IMG/VR virus record: IMGVR_UViG_2663763339_000007
From: a virus
Lineage: Duplodnaviria; Heunggongvirae; Uroviricota; Caudoviricetes
Direction: 5' to 3' (one strand)
DNA: 10,561 bases
Shown: positions 3,026 to 8,551 of the stretch, one piece after another
How the letters are laid out: every line of letters starts with the position of its first letter
Numbering within the stretch: position 1 is the first letter of the stretch
The notes under the pieces: model-generated
Seen by the model: only the letters and a program-made list of their open reading frames with translations
Database searches by the model: none
Told to the model about the DNA's origin: nothing
Program-made: the position numbers and the translations under genes

Positions 3026-3625
3026 ATGCGTAAAGTTTGTGCAGCAATTTTGTCCGCAGCCATTTGTCTGGCCGTATCCGGTGCGCCTGCATGGGCGTCT
3101 GAACATCAGTCCACGCTGAGCGCGGGGTATCTTCATGCCTCGACGAACGTCCCCGGCAGCGATGATCTGAACGGGATTAACGTGAAATACCGTTATGAGT
3201 TTACGGACACACTGGGGCTGGTGACGTCATTCAGCTATGCAGGAGACAAGAATCGCCAGCTGACCCGTTACAGCGATACCCGCTGGCATGAAGATTCCGT
3301 TCGTAACCGCTGGTTCAGCGTAATGGCGGGGCCGTCTGTGCGCGTGAATGAATGGTTCAGCGCGTATGCGATGGCGGGTGTAGCTTACAACCGTGTGTCG
3401 ACTTTCTCCGGGGATTATCTTCGCGTAACTGACAACAAGGGGAAAAAGCACGATGTGCTGACCGGAAGTGATGACGGTCGCCACAGCAACACGTCTCTGG
3501 CGTGGGGGGCTGGCGTGCAGTTTAACCCGACCGAATCCGTGGCCATTGATATTGCTTATGAAGGCTCCGGCAGTGGTGACTGGCGCACTGACGGTTTCAT
3601 CGTGGGTGTCGGTTATAAATTCTGA
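3026..3625 (+). CDS. lom: Outer membrane protein Lom (Ail/Lom/PagC/OmpX family beta-barrel), 199 aa
   Basis: ATG at 3026 preceded by GAGAGG (3015-3020). N-terminal signal peptide MRKVCAAILSAAICLAVSGAPAWA. C-terminal aromatic residue (…GVGYKF), typical of outer membrane beta-barrels. Sequence matches my recollection of lambda Lom, and the position between J and stf is as in lambda. Confidence 0.93.
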   Translation: MRKVCAAILSAAICLAVSGAPAWASEHQSTLSAGYLHASTNVPGSDDLNGINVKYRYEFTDTLGLVTSFSYAGDKNRQLTRYSDTRWHEDSVRNRWFSVMAGPSVRVNEWFSAYAMAGVAYNRVSTFSGDYLRVTDNKGKKHDVLTGSDDGRHSNTSLAWGAGVQFNPTESVAIDIAYEGSGSGDWRTDGFIVGVGYKF

Positions 3626-3651
3626 TTAGCCAGGTAACACAGTGTTATGAC

Positions 3652-3678
3652 AGCCCGCCGGTTCAGGCGGGCTTTTTT
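3652..3678 (+). terminator. Rho-independent terminator downstream of lom
   Basis: Stem GCCCGCC (3653-3659), loop ~GGTTCA, stem GGCGGGC (3666-3672), then TTTTTT (3673-3678). Confidence 0.8.
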
Positions 3679-3689
3679 GTGGGGTGAAT

Positions 3690-6380
3690 ATGGCAGTAAA
3701 GATTTCAGGTGTACTGAAAGACGGCACAGGAAAACCGGTACAGAACTGCACAATCCAGCTGAAAGCAAAACGTAACAGCACCACGGTGGTGGTGAACACG
3801 CTGGCCTCAGAAAATCCGGATGAAGCCGGGCGTTACAGCATGGACGTTGAGTACGGGCAGTACAGCGTTATTCTGTTGGTGGAGGGATTCCCGCCGTCAC
3901 ATGCCGGGACCATCACCGTGTATGAAGATTCCCGACCCGGTACGCTGAATGATTTTCTCGGTGCCATGACGGAGGATGATGCCCGTCCTGAGGCACTGCG
4001 CCGTTTTGAACTGATGGTGGAAGAGGTGGCGCGTAACGCGTCCGCGGTGGCACAGAACACGGCAGCCGCGAAGAAGTCAGCCAGCGATGCCAGCACATCA
4101 GCCCGTGAGGCGGCAACCCATGCGACTGATGCTGCAGATTCAGCACGTGCAGCCAGCACGTCAGCCGGACAGGCCGCTTCGTCGGCTCAGTCAGCGTCTT
4201 CCAGCGCAGGAACGGCATCAACAAAGGCCACTGAAGCCTCAAAAAGTGCTGCCGCTGCAGAGTCCTCAAAAAGCGTGGCAGCTACCAGTGCCGGTGCGGC
4301 GAAAACGTCAGAAACGAATGCCGCAGCGTCAGAACAATCAGCCGCCACTTCTGCATCCACCGCGACCACGAAAGCGTCAGAAGCTGCCACCTCAGCCCGG
4401 GATGCGGCGGCCTCAAAAGAGGCAGCGAAATCATCAGAAACGAACGCGAAAGCGTCGGAAACCCGTGCAGAATCCTCAAAAACGGCAGCGGCATCGTCCG
4501 CCAGTTCGGCGGCGTCATCGGCATCATCGGCGTCTGCTTCAAAAGATGAGGCGACCAGACAGGCGTCAGCAGCGAAGGGCAGCGCCACGACGGCATCCAC
4601 GAAGGCGACAGAGGCTGCTGGTAGTGCGAAGGCAGCAGCTCAGAGCAAAAGTACGGCGGAATCTGCAGCAACGCGCGCTGAGACAGCGGCAAAACGGGCA
4701 GAGGATATTGCATCCGCCGTGGCGCTTGAGGATGCGAGCACGACGAAAAAGGGGATAGTACAGCTCAGTAGTGCGACTAACAGCACTTCCGAGTCACTGG
4801 CGGCAACACCAAAAGCCGTTAAGGCCGCGTATGACCTGGCTAGCGGGAAATACACCGCACAGGATGCAACGACAGCACAGAAAGGGATAATCCAGCTAAG
4901 CAGCGCGACCAACAGCACGTCTGAAACGCTGGCGGCAACGCCAAAGGCAGTAAAAGCAGCCAATGACAATGCTGAGAAACGTCTGCAGAAAGATCAGAAC
5001 GGTGCGGATATCCCTGGCAAAGACACCTTTACGAAAAATATTGGTGCCTGCCGTGCCTTCGGTGGGTCAGTAAGCACAACAACAGGAAACTGGACGACTG
5101 CACAGTTTATCGAGTGGCTGGATTCTCAGGGAGCATTTAACCATCCATACTGGATGTGCAAGGGTTCCTGGTCTTATGGCAATAATAAAATCATTACTGA
5201 TACTGGCTGCGGTAATATTCATCTCGCCGGAGCTGTCATTGAAGTAATGGGGATAAAGTCAGCGATGACGATCCGCATTACCACTCCGACCACATCCAGC
5301 GGTGGCGGAACAACCAACGCCCAGTTTACCTATATTAATCACGGAACAGATTATTCACCTGGCTGGCGAAGGGACTATAACTCCAGAAATAAGCCAACGG
5401 CATCAGAGATCGGGGCGCTACCGTCAGGTGGAACAGCAGTATCATCAGTTAATCTGGCTTCAAAAGGTCGGGTAGCCGCGCTGACAGACAATACGCAGGG
5501 GGCAGCAGGTCTTGAGTTATACGAGGTGTATAACAACGGATATCCAACAACGTATGGAAATATCATTCACCTGAAAGGGATGACAGCCGTTGGCGAAGGT
5601 GAGTTACTCATCGGCTGGAGTGGTACAAGCGGTGCTCATGCTCCGGCATTTATTCGTTCACGACGGGATACGACCGACGCAAACTGGTCGCCGTGGGCGC
5701 AGCTTTACACCTCGGCTCATCCTCCTGCAGAGTTTTATCCAGTCGGTGCACCAATCCCGTGGCCATCAGATACCGTTCCGTCTGGTTATGTCCTGATGCA
5801 GGGGCAGACTTTTGACAAATCTGCATACCCGAAACTTGCAGCCGCTTATCCGTCAGGCGTGATCCCTGATATGCGTGGCTGGACGATTAAGGGCAAACCT
5901 GCCAGTGGTCGGGCCGTATTGTCTCAGGAACAGGACGGCATTAAATCGCACACCCACAGCGCCAGCGCATCCAGTACGGATTTGGGGACGAAAACCACAT
6001 CGTCGTTTGATTACGGCACTAAATCCACGAATAACATCGGGGCGCATACGCACAGTGTGAGCGGTACAGCCGCAAGTGCCGGAAACCATACTCATAGTGT
6101 CACAGGCGCATCAGCAGTCAGCCAGTGGTCACAAAATGGGTCAGTACATAAGGTAGTGTCTGCGGCCAGTGTGAATACAAGTGCTGCAGGAGCGCACACT
6201 CATAGTGTCAGCGGCACAGCTGCATCTGCAGGTGCTCACGCACATACTGTCGGTATTGGTGCTCATACGCACTCGGTTGCGATTGGCTCACATGGACACA
6301 CCATCACCGTTAACGCTGCTGGTAACGCGGAAAACACCGTCAAAAACATCGCATTTAACTATATTGTGAGGCTTGCATGA
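3690..6380 (+). CDS. stf: Side tail fibre protein Stf, full length (~896 aa from ATG 3690; the ORF track starts at in-frame GTG 3684)
   Basis: ATG 3690 preceded by a G-rich SD (GGGGTG, 3681-3686). N-terminus [26 protein letters not shown]… matches my recollection of lambda Stf. Contains a long Ala/Ser/Thr-rich shaft, two copies of the phage tail fibre repeat, and a C-terminal tip with repeated GAHTHSV / GAHAHTV / GSHGHTI motifs ending …[11 protein letters not shown]. The stop TGA (6378-6380) overlaps the next ATG. Confidence 0.93.
4060..4730 (+). repeat. Ala/Ser/Thr-rich low-complexity coding region of the Stf shaft
   Basis: Translation is dominated by short A/S/T/K/E-containing units (…[48 protein letters not shown]…). 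This explains the many long alternative-frame ORFs in the track over 3833-4969. Coordinates are approximate. Confidence 0.7.
4746..4962 (+). repeat. Tandem duplicated ~44-codon coding repeat within stf (phage tail fibre repeat motif)
   Basis: Peptide [32 protein letters not shown] is followed about 132 nt later by [32 protein letters not shown]. The nucleotide copies at about 4746-4830 and 4878-4962 are clearly related but diverged. Confidence 0.8.
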
Positions 6381-7279
6381 TTACGCTCATTCTTTCTGCA
6401 CCAGTAACCGAAATGGCTGAAGCATTTAAGCGGGTATTTGCAAATGCAGATAATGTGAATATTGTCGGAAAGCCATTTGAAACAATCAGAGAATTTGACT
6501 GCATGGTAAGTGCGGCAAATAGTTTCGGCCTGATGGATGGCGGTGTTGATGCCGCCATTACCACATTCTTCGGTTCTCAGCTACAGGCCCGCGTTCAGAA
6601 TCATATTCTTCGTGAATATCTCGGCGAGCAGCCTGTAGGTTCTGCATTTGTTATTGAAACGGGGCATAATTATCACCCCTGGCTGGTACATGCGCCAACA
6701 ATGCGTGTTCCGTTGACAATTGACGGAACAGACGCTGTATATAACGCAACTTGGGCAGCTCTACTTGCTATCTTTCAGCACAATAAAAACGCAACGACAG
6801 ACAGGAAAATAAAGACGGTGGTATTCCCTGCAATGGGAGCCGGATGTGGTCAGGTGCCGTTTGAAAGCGTTGCCCGGCAGATGAAGCAGGCATGGGATAA
6901 CTTTAATAAAAAAACAGAATCAATTAACTGGGAATACGCACAATCCCGCCAGTCGGCAGTATTTGGCACATATGCATACTGTCCGGGTAATTCTGTTTGC
7001 CGTTATGCGGATACTAAATATATTGGATGCGGCGATTATCGGACGTATTGCTCACGTTCCGGGCAGGTCTGTATTAACCCTGAACATCAGGCTGATGATG
7101 TACTGATACAACATCAGGCTAATAACCGGTTTCGCCCTGGTTCGCATATACACCGGATTAATCCAGAAAATCCTGTAGGTAATGTCATCTCTGGCGCACA
7201 TAGCCACGGAAGTAGCATCGTTATTGGTGCTCACACCCATACGCTCAATAAACAATATTCTGTCTCTGATATTAAGTAG
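6377..7279 (+). CDS. Macro-domain (ADP-ribose binding/processing-like) protein with a Cys-rich linker and a tail-fibre-tip-like HxH C-terminus, 300 aa; inserted between stf and tfa
   Basis: ATG 6377 overlaps the stf stop (ATGA) and is preceded by GAGG (6368-6371). Macro-domain motifs read directly from the translation: [21 protein letters not shown] (cf. the canonical VNAAN…GGGVDGAI), [21 protein letters not shown], and [14 protein letters not shown] (cf. AFPAISTGVYGYP). The C-terminal ~120 aa has five Cys ([32 protein letters not shown]), then GSHIH…[17 protein letters not shown], resembling the stf tip HxH repeats. The ORF is visibly AT-richer than stf. Family assignment is motif-based only. 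Confidence 0.7.
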
Positions 7280-7287
7280 AGGTGAAC

Positions 7288-7863
7288 ATGGATTTCAGAA
7301 TGAGTGAACAACCACGGACCATAACAATTTATAATCTGCTGGCCGGAACTAATGAATTTATTGGTGAAGGTGACGCATACATTCCGCCTCATACAGGTCT
7401 GCCAGCAAACAGTACCGATATTGCACCGCCAGATATTCCGGCTGGTTTCGTGGCTGTTTTCAACAGTGATGAGTCATCGTGGCATCTCGTTGAAGATCAT
7501 CGGGGTAAAACGGTTTATGACGTGGCTTCCGGCGACGCGTTATTTATTTCTGAACTCGGCTCATTACCGGAAAATGTCACCTGGTTATCCCCGGAAGGGG
7601 AGTTTCAGAAGTGGAACGGCACAGCCTGGGTGAAGGATACGGAAGCAGAAAAACTGTTCCGGATCCGGGAGGCGGAAGAAACAAAAAACAGCCTGATGCA
7701 GGTAGCCAGTGAGCATATAGCGCCGCTTCAGGATGCTGTGGATCTGGAGATCGCAACGGAGAAAGAAACCTTGTTGCTGGAAGCCTGGAAAAAGTATCGG
7801 GTGTTGCTGAACCGTGTTGATACATCAACTGCACCGGATATTGAATGGCCAGCCCTACCGTAG
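7288..7863 (+). CDS. tfa: Tail fibre assembly protein Tfa (~191 aa from ATG 7288; the ORF track starts at in-frame GTG 7282)
   Basis: ATG 7288 preceded by GAGG (7279-7282). Translation [79 protein letters not shown]… matches my recollection of lambda Tfa. Confidence 0.92.
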
Positions 7864-7960: not shown

Positions 7961-8551
7961 TTATATATCAGGTGTCTGATTTTTTGCTTTAGCTCTTAAA
8001 ATGGTTTGCCGCGAGGTTTTGAATTCTTGGGCAATGTCACTTATATTTATACCTGACTTAATTTGCTCTAGTACCCTCTGTATTTGTTCATCATTTAACA
8101 CAGGTGGGCGACCAAATCGCTTTCCTGCGCCCCGTGCTCTTAATATCCCTGAATGAGTACGCTCAAGTAAAAGGTCTCGCTCAAATTCAGCGACTGCTGA
8201 AATTACTTGCATCATCATTTTTCCAGGTGGACTGGTCAGGTCAACGCCCCCCAATGCTAAGCAATGCACTTTGATACCTGCTTTGGTCAGTTGTTCCACC
8301 GTTTTACTGATATCCATTGGATTACAACCGAGGCGATCCAGTTTTGTGACAATCAATGCATCACCTCTTTTCAGTCGATCAAGCAACTGGTTAAAACCAG
8401 GACGCTCACTGGTTGCTGCTGAGCCGCTAATTTGTTCTTCAATTATTTGCTGAGATTTGATGTTAAAACCTGCACTTTCGATTTCCCGACGTTGATTTTT
8501 GGTTGTCTTTTCCAGAGTTGATACCCGACAGTAAGCATAAATTCGAGACAT
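7961..8551 (-). CDS. Small serine recombinase (resolvase/invertase family), 196 aa
   Basis: N-terminal catalytic region [20 protein letters not shown] with the serine-nucleophile context YxRVST. Conserved acidic/Arg positions (…[12 protein letters not shown]…, …[12 protein letters not shown]…). A GRPP motif is followed by a C-terminal helix-turn-helix-like segment ([19 protein letters not shown]). The N-terminus differs from the Pin/Gin/Hin consensus as I recall it, so resolvase versus invertase is not assigned. Confidence 0.88.

Follow-up and report, generated by a model that had tools for sequence, protein, structure and literature searches.

A macro-domain gene with a Cys/His-rich tail set between the stf and tfa genes of lambda-type phages

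In T2-, T6- and S16-like phages, the gene for the gp38-type adhesin lies directly 3' of the distal fibre gene, a position from which a product could sit on the fibre tip. In the needle of T4 gp37, histidines coordinate seven iron atoms along the trimer and are essential (PMC6957217). Macro domain genes are also carried by phages, and the survey of Iyer et al. often located them among morphogenesis genes (PMC9503650). A role has been described for AdfM (Tk.4 in T4; gp104 and gp108 in the chimalliviruses PhiKZ and PhiPA3), which counters DarTG2; the DarG2 and AdfM macrodomains remove ADP-ribose from thymidine in ssDNA, and the phage is protected from DarTG2 (PMC13309987). Among MacroD-type enzymes, OiMacroD has a diphosphate motif that includes an aromatic residue (S130-x-G132-V133-Y134), while the Macro2-type clade, to which yeast Ymx7 belongs, has been described as poorly studied (PMC5413906).

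Here we describe a macro-domain gene located between stf and tfa in a window of 10,561 nt (the whole stretch of DNA analysed, from the Caudoviricetes record IMGVR_UViG_2663763339_000007).

Gene order and presence or absence at the stf/tfa junction

The following features define the locus:

3684..6380, + strand: stf, side tail fibre gene, 898 aa (Pfam phage_tail_N, Phage_fiber_2, Collar and Phage_fiber; phrog_295, tail fiber)
6368..6371, + strand: GAGG Shine-Dalgarno, 5 nt 5' of the macro ATG, within the last stf codons
6377..7279, + strand: macro-domain protein gene, 300 aa plus stop, ATG start
6379..7287, + strand: 909-nt insert, from alignment with lambda, 2H10, SPF_0923 and others lacking it
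7256..7279, + strand: last 7 codons (YSVSDIK) plus stop, from nucleotide alignments
7279..7284, + strand: GAGGTG, Shine-Dalgarno for tfa, supplied by the insert and absent at empty sites
7288..7863, + strand, stop included: tfa, tail fibre assembly chaperone (Pfam Caudo_TAP, 150.5 bits)

The 300-codon reading frame with an ATGA overlap to stf, as proposed in the first-pass annotation, was confirmed, with the macro ATG at 6377-6379 and the stf TGA at 6378-6380. The same annotation had the tfa start 9 nt past the macro stop (TAG, 7277-7279), and the tfa ATG indeed begins at the ninth nucleotide, 7288, leaving 8 nt between the two; at an identical locus, the NCBI annotation places the macro stop and the tfa start in the same way. 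The GAGG upstream of the macro ATG is present as described but is not the gene's own, being part of the stf codons and serving, according to alignment with empty sites, as the tfa Shine-Dalgarno in phages without the insert. The surrounding sequence, GTGAGGCTnGCATGAT, is kept in all phage-type loci. Codon 2 of tfa is GAT here versus GCA in lambda, and from 7294 onward the sequence is again homologous to the empty sites. The 289-aa alleles have a 1-nt indel that brings a stop directly after NKQ, and the YSVSDIK DNA becomes an untranslated spacer.

Insertion of the gene at a lambda-type junction, also suggested earlier, is borne out by empty sites, in which a single A replaces the insert (...GCAT/A/ATGGCA...); CATG is found on both insert flanks. 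The boundaries are exact relative to lambda, 2H10 and SPF_0923, with flanks that are 91-98% identical. Counted at a coverage of at least 80% of the junction query, the empty junction occurs in 3,782 of 5,426 E. coli genomes, and 128 genomes have a filled one. The order Stf tip, macro gene and tfa was observed in 90/90 phage-type loci examined, in all of which the Stf-tip stop overlaps the macro ATG and tfa lies within -10 to +31 nt. On this comparison of loci, the gene is rare, optional and dispensable for the fibre, and its synteny is strict. Its placement between a fibre gene and a chaperone gene, with coupling to both, might indicate an obligate assembly factor (co-chaperone) for this fibre-tip type. 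However, Stf tips and Tfa that are 96-98% identical at the DNA level abut directly in the functional phages 2H10, PhiR29, SPF_0923 and lambda, and the junction is empty in thousands of E. coli genomes. Since near-identical Stf tips and Tfa work without the macro gene, the gene is not part of fibre assembly, and an obligate co-chaperone, already contradicted by the empty sites, is hardly credible.

Carriers of the gene include lambdoid phages (Gifsy-1 among them), the P2-like phages SEN4/5 and Chuche, and a 110-kb phage-plasmid. Nearly all copies lie in prophages of E. coli and Salmonella, pathogens included (ST131, O157, Gifsy-1), while Chuche, isolated from mud, and SEN4/5 are isolated phages with the gene. 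Databases contain at least 1,700 members of the family, which corresponds to PHROG 2613 and bears the RefSeq name 'macro domain-containing protein'; its member in Gifsy-1 of S. Typhimurium LT2 is annotated with a Macro domain. The initial view that such a gene would be unusual under either of the origins then considered was therefore too strong. The family is annotated in databases, yet uncharacterised, and literature searches returned no biochemical, genetic, transcriptomic or proteomic data for any member. The label 'phage tail protein', attached to many members and even to cyanobacterial homologues, is a transitive annotation error.

Promoter- and terminator-like sites at the macro locus showed no excess over the shuffle expectation, and no + strand promoter-like site was found 5' of the macro start within the scanned interval 5600-6377. 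Because the gene has no promoter or terminator of its own and is coupled on both sides, it is expected, from its overlapping stop and start, to follow late-operon expression. The same layout bears on whether this could be a lysogenic-conversion gene, expressed from the prophage for the benefit of the host (in stress ADP-ribose metabolism, in immunity to the ADP-ribosylating toxins of competitors or by action on ADP-ribosylation in a eukaryotic host). Conversion genes are known to occur at the tail-fibre end of lambdoid prophages, lom is a near neighbour in the window (Pfam), and nearly all copies reside in E. coli and Salmonella prophages, including those of pathogens. However, an overlap with the stf stop leaves no room for a separate promoter, no terminator follows, and the N-terminus in the AF2 model is the first beta-strand of the fold, with no signal peptide. 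Together with the occurrence of the gene in the isolated phages Chuche and SEN4/5, these features make a conversion function very improbable.

The macro domain and its cellular relatives

Three features were mapped in the N-terminal part of the protein:

6377..6964, + strand: macro domain, aa 1-196 (Pfam Macro, AF2, Foldseek, 36 invariant columns)
6518..6550, + strand: catalytic-loop signature N48-x6-G55-G56-V57-D58
6833..6850, + strand: diphosphate-loop region M153-G158

The N-terminal macro domain that had been recognised from its motifs was recovered in profile, structure-prediction and fold searches. Pfam Macro (PF01661) matches with 68.6 bits (cut-off 22) at aa 44-169, an alignment that spans the full profile (positions 1-118 of 118). 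The AF2 model predicts a three-layer alpha/beta/alpha macro fold, with pLDDT mostly above 90 across aa 1-196. Foldseek returned 156 PDB matches at E<=0.001, and among those listed all are macro domains or macro-based designs; the best solved-structure match is 1njr, the yeast Ymx7 ADP-ribose-1''-monophosphatase. Macro_2 (PF14519) remains below threshold (23.4 bits versus a cut-off of 27, aa 42-112 only), and precomputed PF14519 hits exist in many family members. A DarG/AdfM-like identity was rejected, as DarG profiles reached only 12-14 bits (PADLOC, E=0.005 and 14.4 bits over 39 aa; NCBIfam antitoxin_DarG, 12.7 versus a cut-off of 250). In the viral fold search, a tk.4 homologue appeared only at rank 31.

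The catalytic loop N48-SFGLMD-G55-G56-V57-D58 is invariant across 77 phage and cellular sequences, and 36 alignment columns are invariant between the phage family and its cellular homologues. The loop matches N30...G37-V39-D40 of OiMacroD, with N48 and D58 corresponding to the distal-ribose contacts N30 and D40 (PMC5413906). The diphosphate loop reads M153-G-A-G-C-G158, versus G-T-A-T-G in the cellular homologues, and contains no aromatic residue. The dN/dS of the domain is 0.12-0.13 (pooled pairwise estimates, no phylogenetic correction). Judged by these residues, the domain has most likely kept the ability to bind and hydrolyse an ADP-ribose derivative, although the MGAGCG loop, lacking the MacroD-type aromatic residue, makes catalysis, as opposed to binding, uncertain. 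Sequence and fold matches would tentatively place it near the poorly studied Ymx7/Macro_2-like group, with a retained MacroD-like N-x6-GGVD loop.

Standalone cellular homologues of 198-225 aa occur in Chloroflexota, Cyanobacteria, Acidobacteriota and Planctomycetota. They are 46-54% identical to the phage protein, end at about aa 195-210 and have no tail, and no conserved neighbours that would hint at a substrate were found among them. Since the relatives from cells, at about 50% identity, terminate near residue 195-210, the phage protein is a fusion, as the first-pass annotation had held in describing a macro domain joined to a C-terminal module. By this comparison, the macro domain is of cellular origin and the architecture is in two parts.

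The Cys/His tail and its likeness to the fibre tip

Residues 200-300 contain 5 Cys and 8 His, arranged in two segments that are listed here together with the comparable part of stf:

6039..6299, + strand: six His boxes (G[ASN]HxH) of the Stf tip, starting at 6039, 6081, 6189, 6231, 6258 and 6285
6974..7090, + strand: Cys-rich module, aa 200-238, C202-x5-C208-x16-C225-x6-C232-x4-H237, family-invariant (alignments)
7091..7255, + strand: His-box tail, aa 239-293, with GSHIH from 7139, GAHSH from 7193 and GAHTH from 7226

The Cys4/His module was found only in the macro family in an exhaustive scan of 1.84 billion proteins; no fibre protein with the Cys4 module was found in phages or among these representatives. 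For aa 186-300, no Pfam hit was obtained even at E<=1. AF2 predicts small beta-hairpins in the Cys module (pLDDT 50-66) and leaves the His-box tail unstructured in the monomer model (pLDDT below 50). All intact members surveyed have the Cys module, and only one (265 aa) is without His boxes. The tail is a private, lineage-specific extension, for which metal binding together with oligomerisation or docking is the most likely function.

The HxH echo of the Stf tip that had been noticed in the tail lies well beyond chance. A six-frame scan of the window located G[ASN]HxH in two places only, with three copies in the macro tail and six in the 150 C-terminal aa of Stf; in 200,000 shuffles of the tail that preserved its composition, a count of three was never reached (P<5e-6). 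All six Stf boxes are invariant in an alignment of Stf tips from 13 loci. In hhalign, the tail matches the Stf double His box with a probability of 87.7%, with only 18 columns aligned. Profile alignment showed that the Stf terminal cap is absent from the macro tail, and homology to collar or fibre repeats was not found there. The stf-like DNA reported near the macro 3' end is real as a likeness (6237-6271 versus 7205-7239, 26/35 identical with a 12-nt exact word), but it stems solely from coding of the same peptide, IGAHTH: the best pair of His boxes is identical at 17/21 nt, with differences mostly at synonymous positions, and the match is no evidence of recent duplication.

Sequence variation bears on whether the tail has any role. 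A functional macro domain might carry it as a leftover, captured in frame from an old fibre 3' end or from spacer DNA. The dN/dS of the His-box tail is the highest of the protein (0.37-0.44; pooled pairwise, no phylogenetic correction), the number of boxes among alleles ranges from 0 to 4 and tail length varies, several alleles have lost individual boxes (GTPTHT, GAYNHG), and some Salmonella alleles retain a single box. The extreme C-terminus toggles by a 1-nt indel that alters the final 7-11 residues of a stretch conserved as DNA; moreover, AF2 yields no structure and the cellular homologues function without a tail. In contrast, across about 35-40% protein divergence there is little or no change at the four Cys, at His237 or in the first His box (G255, H257, H259), and E. 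coli, Salmonella, Erwinia, Citrobacter and Enterobacter all retain the Cys4 module and this box. The E. coli-type tails differ by a 12-nt indel that preserves the frame, the Izhakiella variant has its tail swapped for another sequence, convergently rich in Cys and His, and the Cys module persists even in the 265-aa member. The dN/dS of the Cys module is 0.19-0.45 (pooled pairwise, no phylogenetic correction), and on such estimates the tail as a whole is under relaxed but real purifying selection, at 0.19-0.45 versus 0.12-0.13 for the macro domain, clearly below 1. A tail without a role is thus rather doubtful. The more specific proposal of the first pass, a relic of the 3' end of an older stf allele, found no support in the sense of a dead remnant, given the cross-genus conservation, the in-frame indel, the dN/dS of 0.2-0.45, the missing fibre cap and the lack of any real fibre with a Cys4 module.

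The His boxes may instead point to a virion-associated fibre accessory, close to the first-pass reading of a protein loaded by Tfa that rides on the virion. The tail would form a metal-stapled trimeric mini-needle, chaperoned by Tfa, or dock on the Stf tip; the macro domain would then ride on the side tail fibre and act at or near the cell surface, or would be a gp38-like cap. This is consistent with three fibre-type boxes and their alignment to the Stf double box, with the essential iron-binding histidines of T4 gp37 (PMC6957217), with a gene always flanked by a His-box fibre tip and tfa and coupled to both, and with the late, structural-operon expression expected from the layout; a tail that is unstructured as a modelled monomer would fit an obligate oligomer. 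However, identical Stf tips and Tfa function without the macro gene in lambda and most E. coli prophages, the fibre-tip similarity is confined to 18 columns without the conserved terminal cap or a Pfam fibre hit, and boxes are lost or reduced to one in some alleles. The Tfa type also varies within one tail type, with 51-65% identity to the Tfa of the window among loci with a 274-aa macro protein. Pocket residues that are invariant with cytoplasmic homologues favour an intracellular ADP-ribose ligand over a surface glycan, and side fibres are not injected. A virion accessory is accordingly doubtful. A bolder form, in which the tail is a portable 'fibre-tip tag' that forms a metal-stapled trimer, chaperoned by Tfa, or co-assembles at the Stf tip, so that an active ADP-ribose enzyme is displayed on the side fibres or carried by them, is improbable; if true, no earlier case would exist of an enzyme that erases or reads ADP-ribose as part of the receptor-binding organelle of a phage, and the tag would offer a natural scaffold from which to hang cargo on fibres.

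Proposed role and comparison with known systems

The reading that we favour, at roughly an even chance of being right, is an accessory late-operon ADP-ribose-processing macro enzyme with a Cys/His tail, which hitch-hikes in a host-range cassette and probably serves counter-defence. The 909-nt cassette occupies the precise point where the stop of a lambda-type Stf tip overlaps the tfa start and preserves translational coupling on both sides; it would travel between lambdoid, P2-like and phage-plasmid genomes within the mobile host-range module. Late in infection, the enzyme would strip ADP-ribose marks or intercept ADP-ribose-derived immune signals, while the Cys4(+His) module and the fibre-type His boxes that follow it would bind metal and mediate oligomerisation or docking. 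An anti-defence role, already raised in the first-pass annotation, is plausible by analogy. For such a factor, late expression is odd timing, save where the protein is packaged or its target is replicating or progeny DNA.

That phage macrodomains act as counter-defence enzymes is a very recent finding (AdfM versus DarTG2). The present family is of a different macro class, has a unique metal-binding-type tail and resides within the module that temperate enterobacterial phages exchange most often, the fibre tip with its chaperone. Should it prove to be a counter-defence enzyme, adsorption specificity and evasion of immunity after entry would be transferred together in a single host-range cassette; should the tail direct the enzyme to the fibre or Tfa, cargo would be loaded onto virions by a novel route. 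Model systems open to immediate manipulation are Gifsy-1 (S. Typhimurium LT2), P2-like phages and those lambda-like phages that have the exact empty site.

Among solved structures, Ymx7/YMR087W (1njr) is the closest match (Foldseek E 4.9e-11, 198 aligned columns) and is a standalone macro enzyme; however, identity is 21% with TM scores of 0.48/0.57, and Ymx7 has neither the Cys/His tail nor a phage context. MacroD-type proteins (OiMacroD, YmdB, human MacroD1/2, viral Mac1) share the macro fold and the N-x6-GG[V]D distal-ribose loop but are 17-27% identical, have S-x-G-V-Y where the phage protein has MGAGCG, and lack the Cys/His module. With the His-box needle of T4 gp37 and lambda Stf, the tail shares G-x-H-x-H boxes at similar spacing and a double box that can be aligned by profile, whereas it has no shaft, collar, terminal cap or fibre Pfam hit, and a Cys4 module precedes its boxes. 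Like the gp38-type adhesin genes, the macro gene lies directly 3' of the distal fibre gene; its product, in contrast, has an enzyme fold instead of a fibre-binding domain at the N-terminus, tfa (the homologue of the gp38 chaperone) is a separate downstream gene, and no sequence or profile similarity to gp38 was found in any search of the macro protein. As with morons such as lom and bor, an extra gene separates neighbours that are adjacent in relatives and whose functions are independent of it, although here the gene is set into a stop/start overlap and coupled on both sides, without its own promoter or terminator. AdfM differs in being DarG2-like with a catalytic Lys, in having no His-box tail and in not being reported at a tail-fibre locus; it nevertheless provides the sole functional precedent for the role of a phage macro protein.

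Placement of the macro gene between stf and tfa

The window spans a lambdoid prophage's distal tail module; downstream of tfa, it also contains what remains of a second prophage. The main features are:

7-2955, J, distal tail module
3026-3625, lom
3684-6380, stf, side tail fibre
6377-7279, plus strand, macro ORF of 300 codons
7288-7863, tfa, tail fibre assembly chaperone
7961-8551, minus strand, Pin/Gin-type DNA invertase downstream of tfa

The ATG of the macro ORF overlaps the stf stop as ATGA, a GAGG lies 5 nt upstream of it, and the TAG stop is followed by GAGGTG and by the ATG of tfa, which begins at the ninth nucleotide past the stop; what the first-pass annotation stated about the sequence is correct. 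The GAGG had also been taken for the ORF's own Shine-Dalgarno sequence, which it is not: it sits within the final stf codons and is the ribosome-binding site of tfa in phages without the macro ORF, the insert supplying a second one for tfa. When compared with the empty-site phages lambda, 2H10 and SPF_0923, the window shows homology up to …GGCTTGCAT (6378) and again from ATGG…TTCAGAATGAGTG (7288/7294), with flanks 91-98% identical; the 909-nt segment between them (6379-7287) sits where those phages have just one A, in the TAATG overlap of stop and start. Promoter- or terminator-like sites for the macro gene itself did not exceed shuffle expectation, and transcription is expected to come with the late operon and translation through coupling.

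Among phage-type loci this placement is fixed: in 90 of 90 a lambda-type Stf tip (with the end …NYIVRLA) has its stop codon overlapped by the macro ATG, and tfa starts -10 to +31 nt from the macro gene. Carriers include lambdoid prophages such as Gifsy-1 (STM2588.1n), the P2-like myophages SEN4/5 and Chuche, and phage-plasmids of ~100 kb. The survey of stf/tfa junctions across phages and prophages proposed in the first-pass annotation found the gene present in some and absent from others. It occurs in 128 of 5,426 complete E. coli genomes, at 131 places (22 on plasmids), while 3,782 E. coli genomes hold an empty junction, counted at 80% or more coverage of a 121-nt junction-spanning query, the only safe figure; both counts are inflated by clonal lineages, e.g. 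ST131. This distribution marks the macro gene as a rare, dispensable passenger of the mobile host-range cassette, needed neither for fibre assembly nor for receptor recognition. The last by weight of four rival explanations, that the product is an assembly factor, is contradicted by the empty sites, and an obligate assembly role was rejected on the same ground.

Several loci deserve separate mention. In E. coli C5, whose locus matches the window in all other respects, J upstream of the cassette is split by an IS3-family element (3253-4430 of that locus); thus, at least some carriers are defective prophages, and the macro gene is intact there. A 10-kb contig of a 'Bacillota bacterium' MAG (JAEWTL010000041.1) holds a 91%-identical copy with E. 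coli-type stf/tfa flanks, and its taxonomic assignment almost certainly reflects mis-binning or contamination. Around the invertase, directly after tfa, there is no alternative fibre-tip/tfa set and there are no inverted crossover sites. A second, truncated tfa occupies 10376-10561 (plus strand), and 92 nt of it (10469-10560) are 85% identical to the 3' part of tfa (7696-7787; direct repeat D3). Together, the invertase and the truncated tfa look like a decayed invertible host-range switch or a junction with an older prophage; in C5 the DLP12-side genes appY and ompT come next. The Rfam family IS009 (RF02111) matches 7631-7829 (plus strand, 218.5 bits) within the tfa coding region; the model behind this 'sRNA' family seems to derive from tfa genes themselves, namely from their conserved 3' half. 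The Stf shaft (4065-4613 and 4729-4967) includes an Ala/Ser/Thr-rich low-complexity region, in which short direct repeats form several families and a 107-nt repeat recurs at a distance of 132 nt, corresponding to Phage_fiber_2 repeats; the antisense strand there contains long spurious ORFs.

The macro domain and its cellular relatives

The N-terminal macro domain proposed in the first-pass annotation was confirmed by profile, fold and structural neighbours. Pfam Macro is matched over its full length by residues 44-169, with 68.6 bits (cut-off 22). AlphaFold2 monomer models from a 77-sequence alignment resolve aa 1-196 as a macro fold, mostly at pLDDT >90, but not the C-terminal tail, and models from just 17 close sequences (mean pLDDT 55) were unusable. 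The PDB matches listed by Foldseek are macro domains or macro-derived designs, headed by the yeast ADP-ribose-1''-monophosphatase Ymx7 (1njr, E 4.9e-11) and continuing with TTHA0132, macroH2A, PARP9/14 macro 1, OiMacroD, DarG, MacroD2 and YmdB. The catalytic-loop signature N48-x6-G55-G56-V57-D58 is invariant in 77/77 sequences; its counterparts in OiMacroD, N30, G37 and D40, hold the distal ribose (PMC5413906).

In contrast to MacroD-type enzymes, which have an aromatic residue in the diphosphate loop, the phage protein has MGAGCG without an aromatic. Because of this loop and a Macro_2 profile score just under its cut-off, we assign the domain to the macro superfamily, closest to the poorly studied Ymx7/Macro2-like group and outside the MacroD-type and DarG-type classes. 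Membership in DarG/AdfM was rejected since DarG profiles gave only 12-14 bits.

A scan for cellular homologues, limited to one genome per species, revealed standalone proteins 198-225 aa long; their identity is 46-54% over aa 1-195, where they end, and their hosts lie in Chloroflexota, Cyanobacteria, Acidobacteriota, Planctomycetota, Bacteroidota and others. The phage protein is thus a macro enzyme of cellular type to which the enterobacterial phage lineage added a C-terminal extension. The window protein has kept all 36 alignment columns that do not vary between cellular and phage members, and the macro domain has a dN/dS of 0.12-0.13 (pooled pairwise Nei-Gojobori estimate, made without a tree). 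Both findings speak for retention of the ancestral ligand pocket and, with it, of an intracellular ligand of ADP-ribose type. No neighbouring gene family was common to more than 11 of the surveyed cellular loci (L013-L085) and none there pointed to ADP-ribose metabolism; for want of conserved neighbours, an operon clue to the substrate was rejected.

Two cyanobacterial standalone proteins (P0125 and P0149) and many Salmonella entries are named 'phage tail protein' in NCBI. This label looks like transitive annotation from the tail-locus position of phage members, and is no sign of tail function. Two further database proteins join part of the macro protein to plasmid-partition-like Pfams (P0018, 463 aa) or to DUF1441 (P0242, 190 aa); they are probably assembly or gene-call chimeras, not real architectures.

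Composition and evolution of the Cys/His tail

The tail begins with four invariant cysteines and His237 (C202-x5-C208-x16-C225-x6-C232-x4-H237, within aa 200-238), followed by three His boxes, GSHIH, GAHSH and GAHTH (aa 239-293). The echo of the Stf tip described in the first-pass annotation stood for the boxes alone. G[ASN]HxH occurs six times in the Stf tip, three times in the macro tail and nowhere else in the window, and none of 200,000 tail shuffles contained three copies. When profiles of 14 tails and 13 Stf tips were compared, the probability reached 87.7% but over only 18 columns, the double His box, and neither the Cys module nor the Stf terminal cap had a counterpart. The DNA likeness noted earlier between the macro 3' end and stf was borne out as well (26/35 positions agree, among them a 12-nt exact word; 17/21 nt in the best box pair, with mostly synonymous mismatches). 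It arises because both genes code for the shared peptide IGAHTH, which accounts for so short a match, and a recent duplication of the stf 3' end was rejected.

The tail had no Pfam match even at E<=1, fibre repeats included, and tblastn of the C-terminal module against 50,697 phage records returned family members only. An exhaustive phmmer/HMMER scan of 1.84 billion representatives produced six matches, of which four are fragments of family members and the other two are spurious: a ricin-lectin repeat protein and a repeat protein without significant Pfam match. As neither the tblastn nor the phmmer scan found a fibre, derivation of the tail from a real fibre was rejected at detectable levels.

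Conservation of the Cys module and of the first His box extends across 48 unique tails (E. coli, E. albertii, E. fergusonii, Salmonella, Erwinia, Citrobacter and Enterobacter), while the number of boxes ranges from 0 to 4. Single boxes are lost in some E. coli alleles (GTPTHT, GAYNHG), a 12-nt in-frame indel removes IQHQ, and a 1-nt indel switches the end between NKQ* (289 aa) and the longer form (300 aa). Since the DNA stays conserved through this last switch, the final seven residues of the window protein are probably incidental. Pooled pairwise dN/dS lies at 0.19-0.45 in the Cys module and at 0.37-0.44 in the His-box tail, as expected of selection that is relaxed yet purifying. These values bear on the second rival by weight, a functional macro domain with a functionless tail. 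In Izhakiella australiensis (L010-L012), the macro domain is shared (in L011, 68% identity over aa 1-199) and is followed by an entirely different 100 aa, again Cys/His-rich (…GCDCGCGWGS…GAHTHS…GAHHHGVKK), which is an independent or replaced tail. From these sequence patterns we conclude that the tail is functional as a Cys/His-rich element, most likely a metal-binding one, and that its distal part is loosely constrained. A specific partnership of the tail with Tfa appears disfavoured because Tfa type varies within one tail type.

A true relic of the macro family is found in Salmonella phage SEN34 (4001-4165), where an orphan Cys4-module fragment, 60% identical to aa ~190-245 and without a macro domain, follows tfa and an O-acetyltransferase gene and is in part covered by a 73-aa 'hypothetical protein'.

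Proposed role and comparison with known phage macrodomains

The macro fold with intact pocket residues, its fusion to a Cys4/His-box tail under selection, the fixed placement between Stf tip and tfa, and dispensability for the fibre are established. From these, the macro protein may be expected to bind or hydrolyse an ADP-ribose derivative in the infected cell, and could aid the phage against ADP-ribose-based host functions. According to Iyer et al., Macro genes of phages are often found within morphogenesis regions, and their proposal was that the virion serves for early deployment (PMC9503650). For the tail, metal-dependent oligomerisation or docking would be the likeliest role; the equivalent histidines of T4 gp37 hold iron along the axis of the trimer (PMC6957217). 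The rival given most weight makes the protein a virion-displayed fibre accessory; the SEN4/5 paper contains no virion proteomics. A lysogenic-conversion gene ranks third.

The family itself is not new to databases, and it is less exotic than the first-pass annotation supposed. It corresponds to PHROG 2613 ('unknown function'), its RefSeq name is 'macro domain-containing protein' (the window product has the same sequence as WP_000631346.1), and the Gifsy-1 annotation already records the Macro domain and a similarity to an Acaryochloris protein. In the searchable literature we found no description of the family's function, tail or stf/tfa linkage, and none of STM2588.1n or any stf-linked macro protein.

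For phage macrodomains, a function has precedents only in T4 Tk.4/AdfM and chimallivirus AdfM, both of which remove DarT2 marks from DNA. The jumbo-phage structural neighbours of the present domain, PhiPA3 gp271 and a Noxifer 'tail protein', differ from the published AdfM proteins gp108/gp104. We rate the family as a phage macrodomain protein that represents a distinct macro class, carries a private tail and keeps a fixed position within the host-range cassette, and as a well-defined candidate that is directly testable in model phages.
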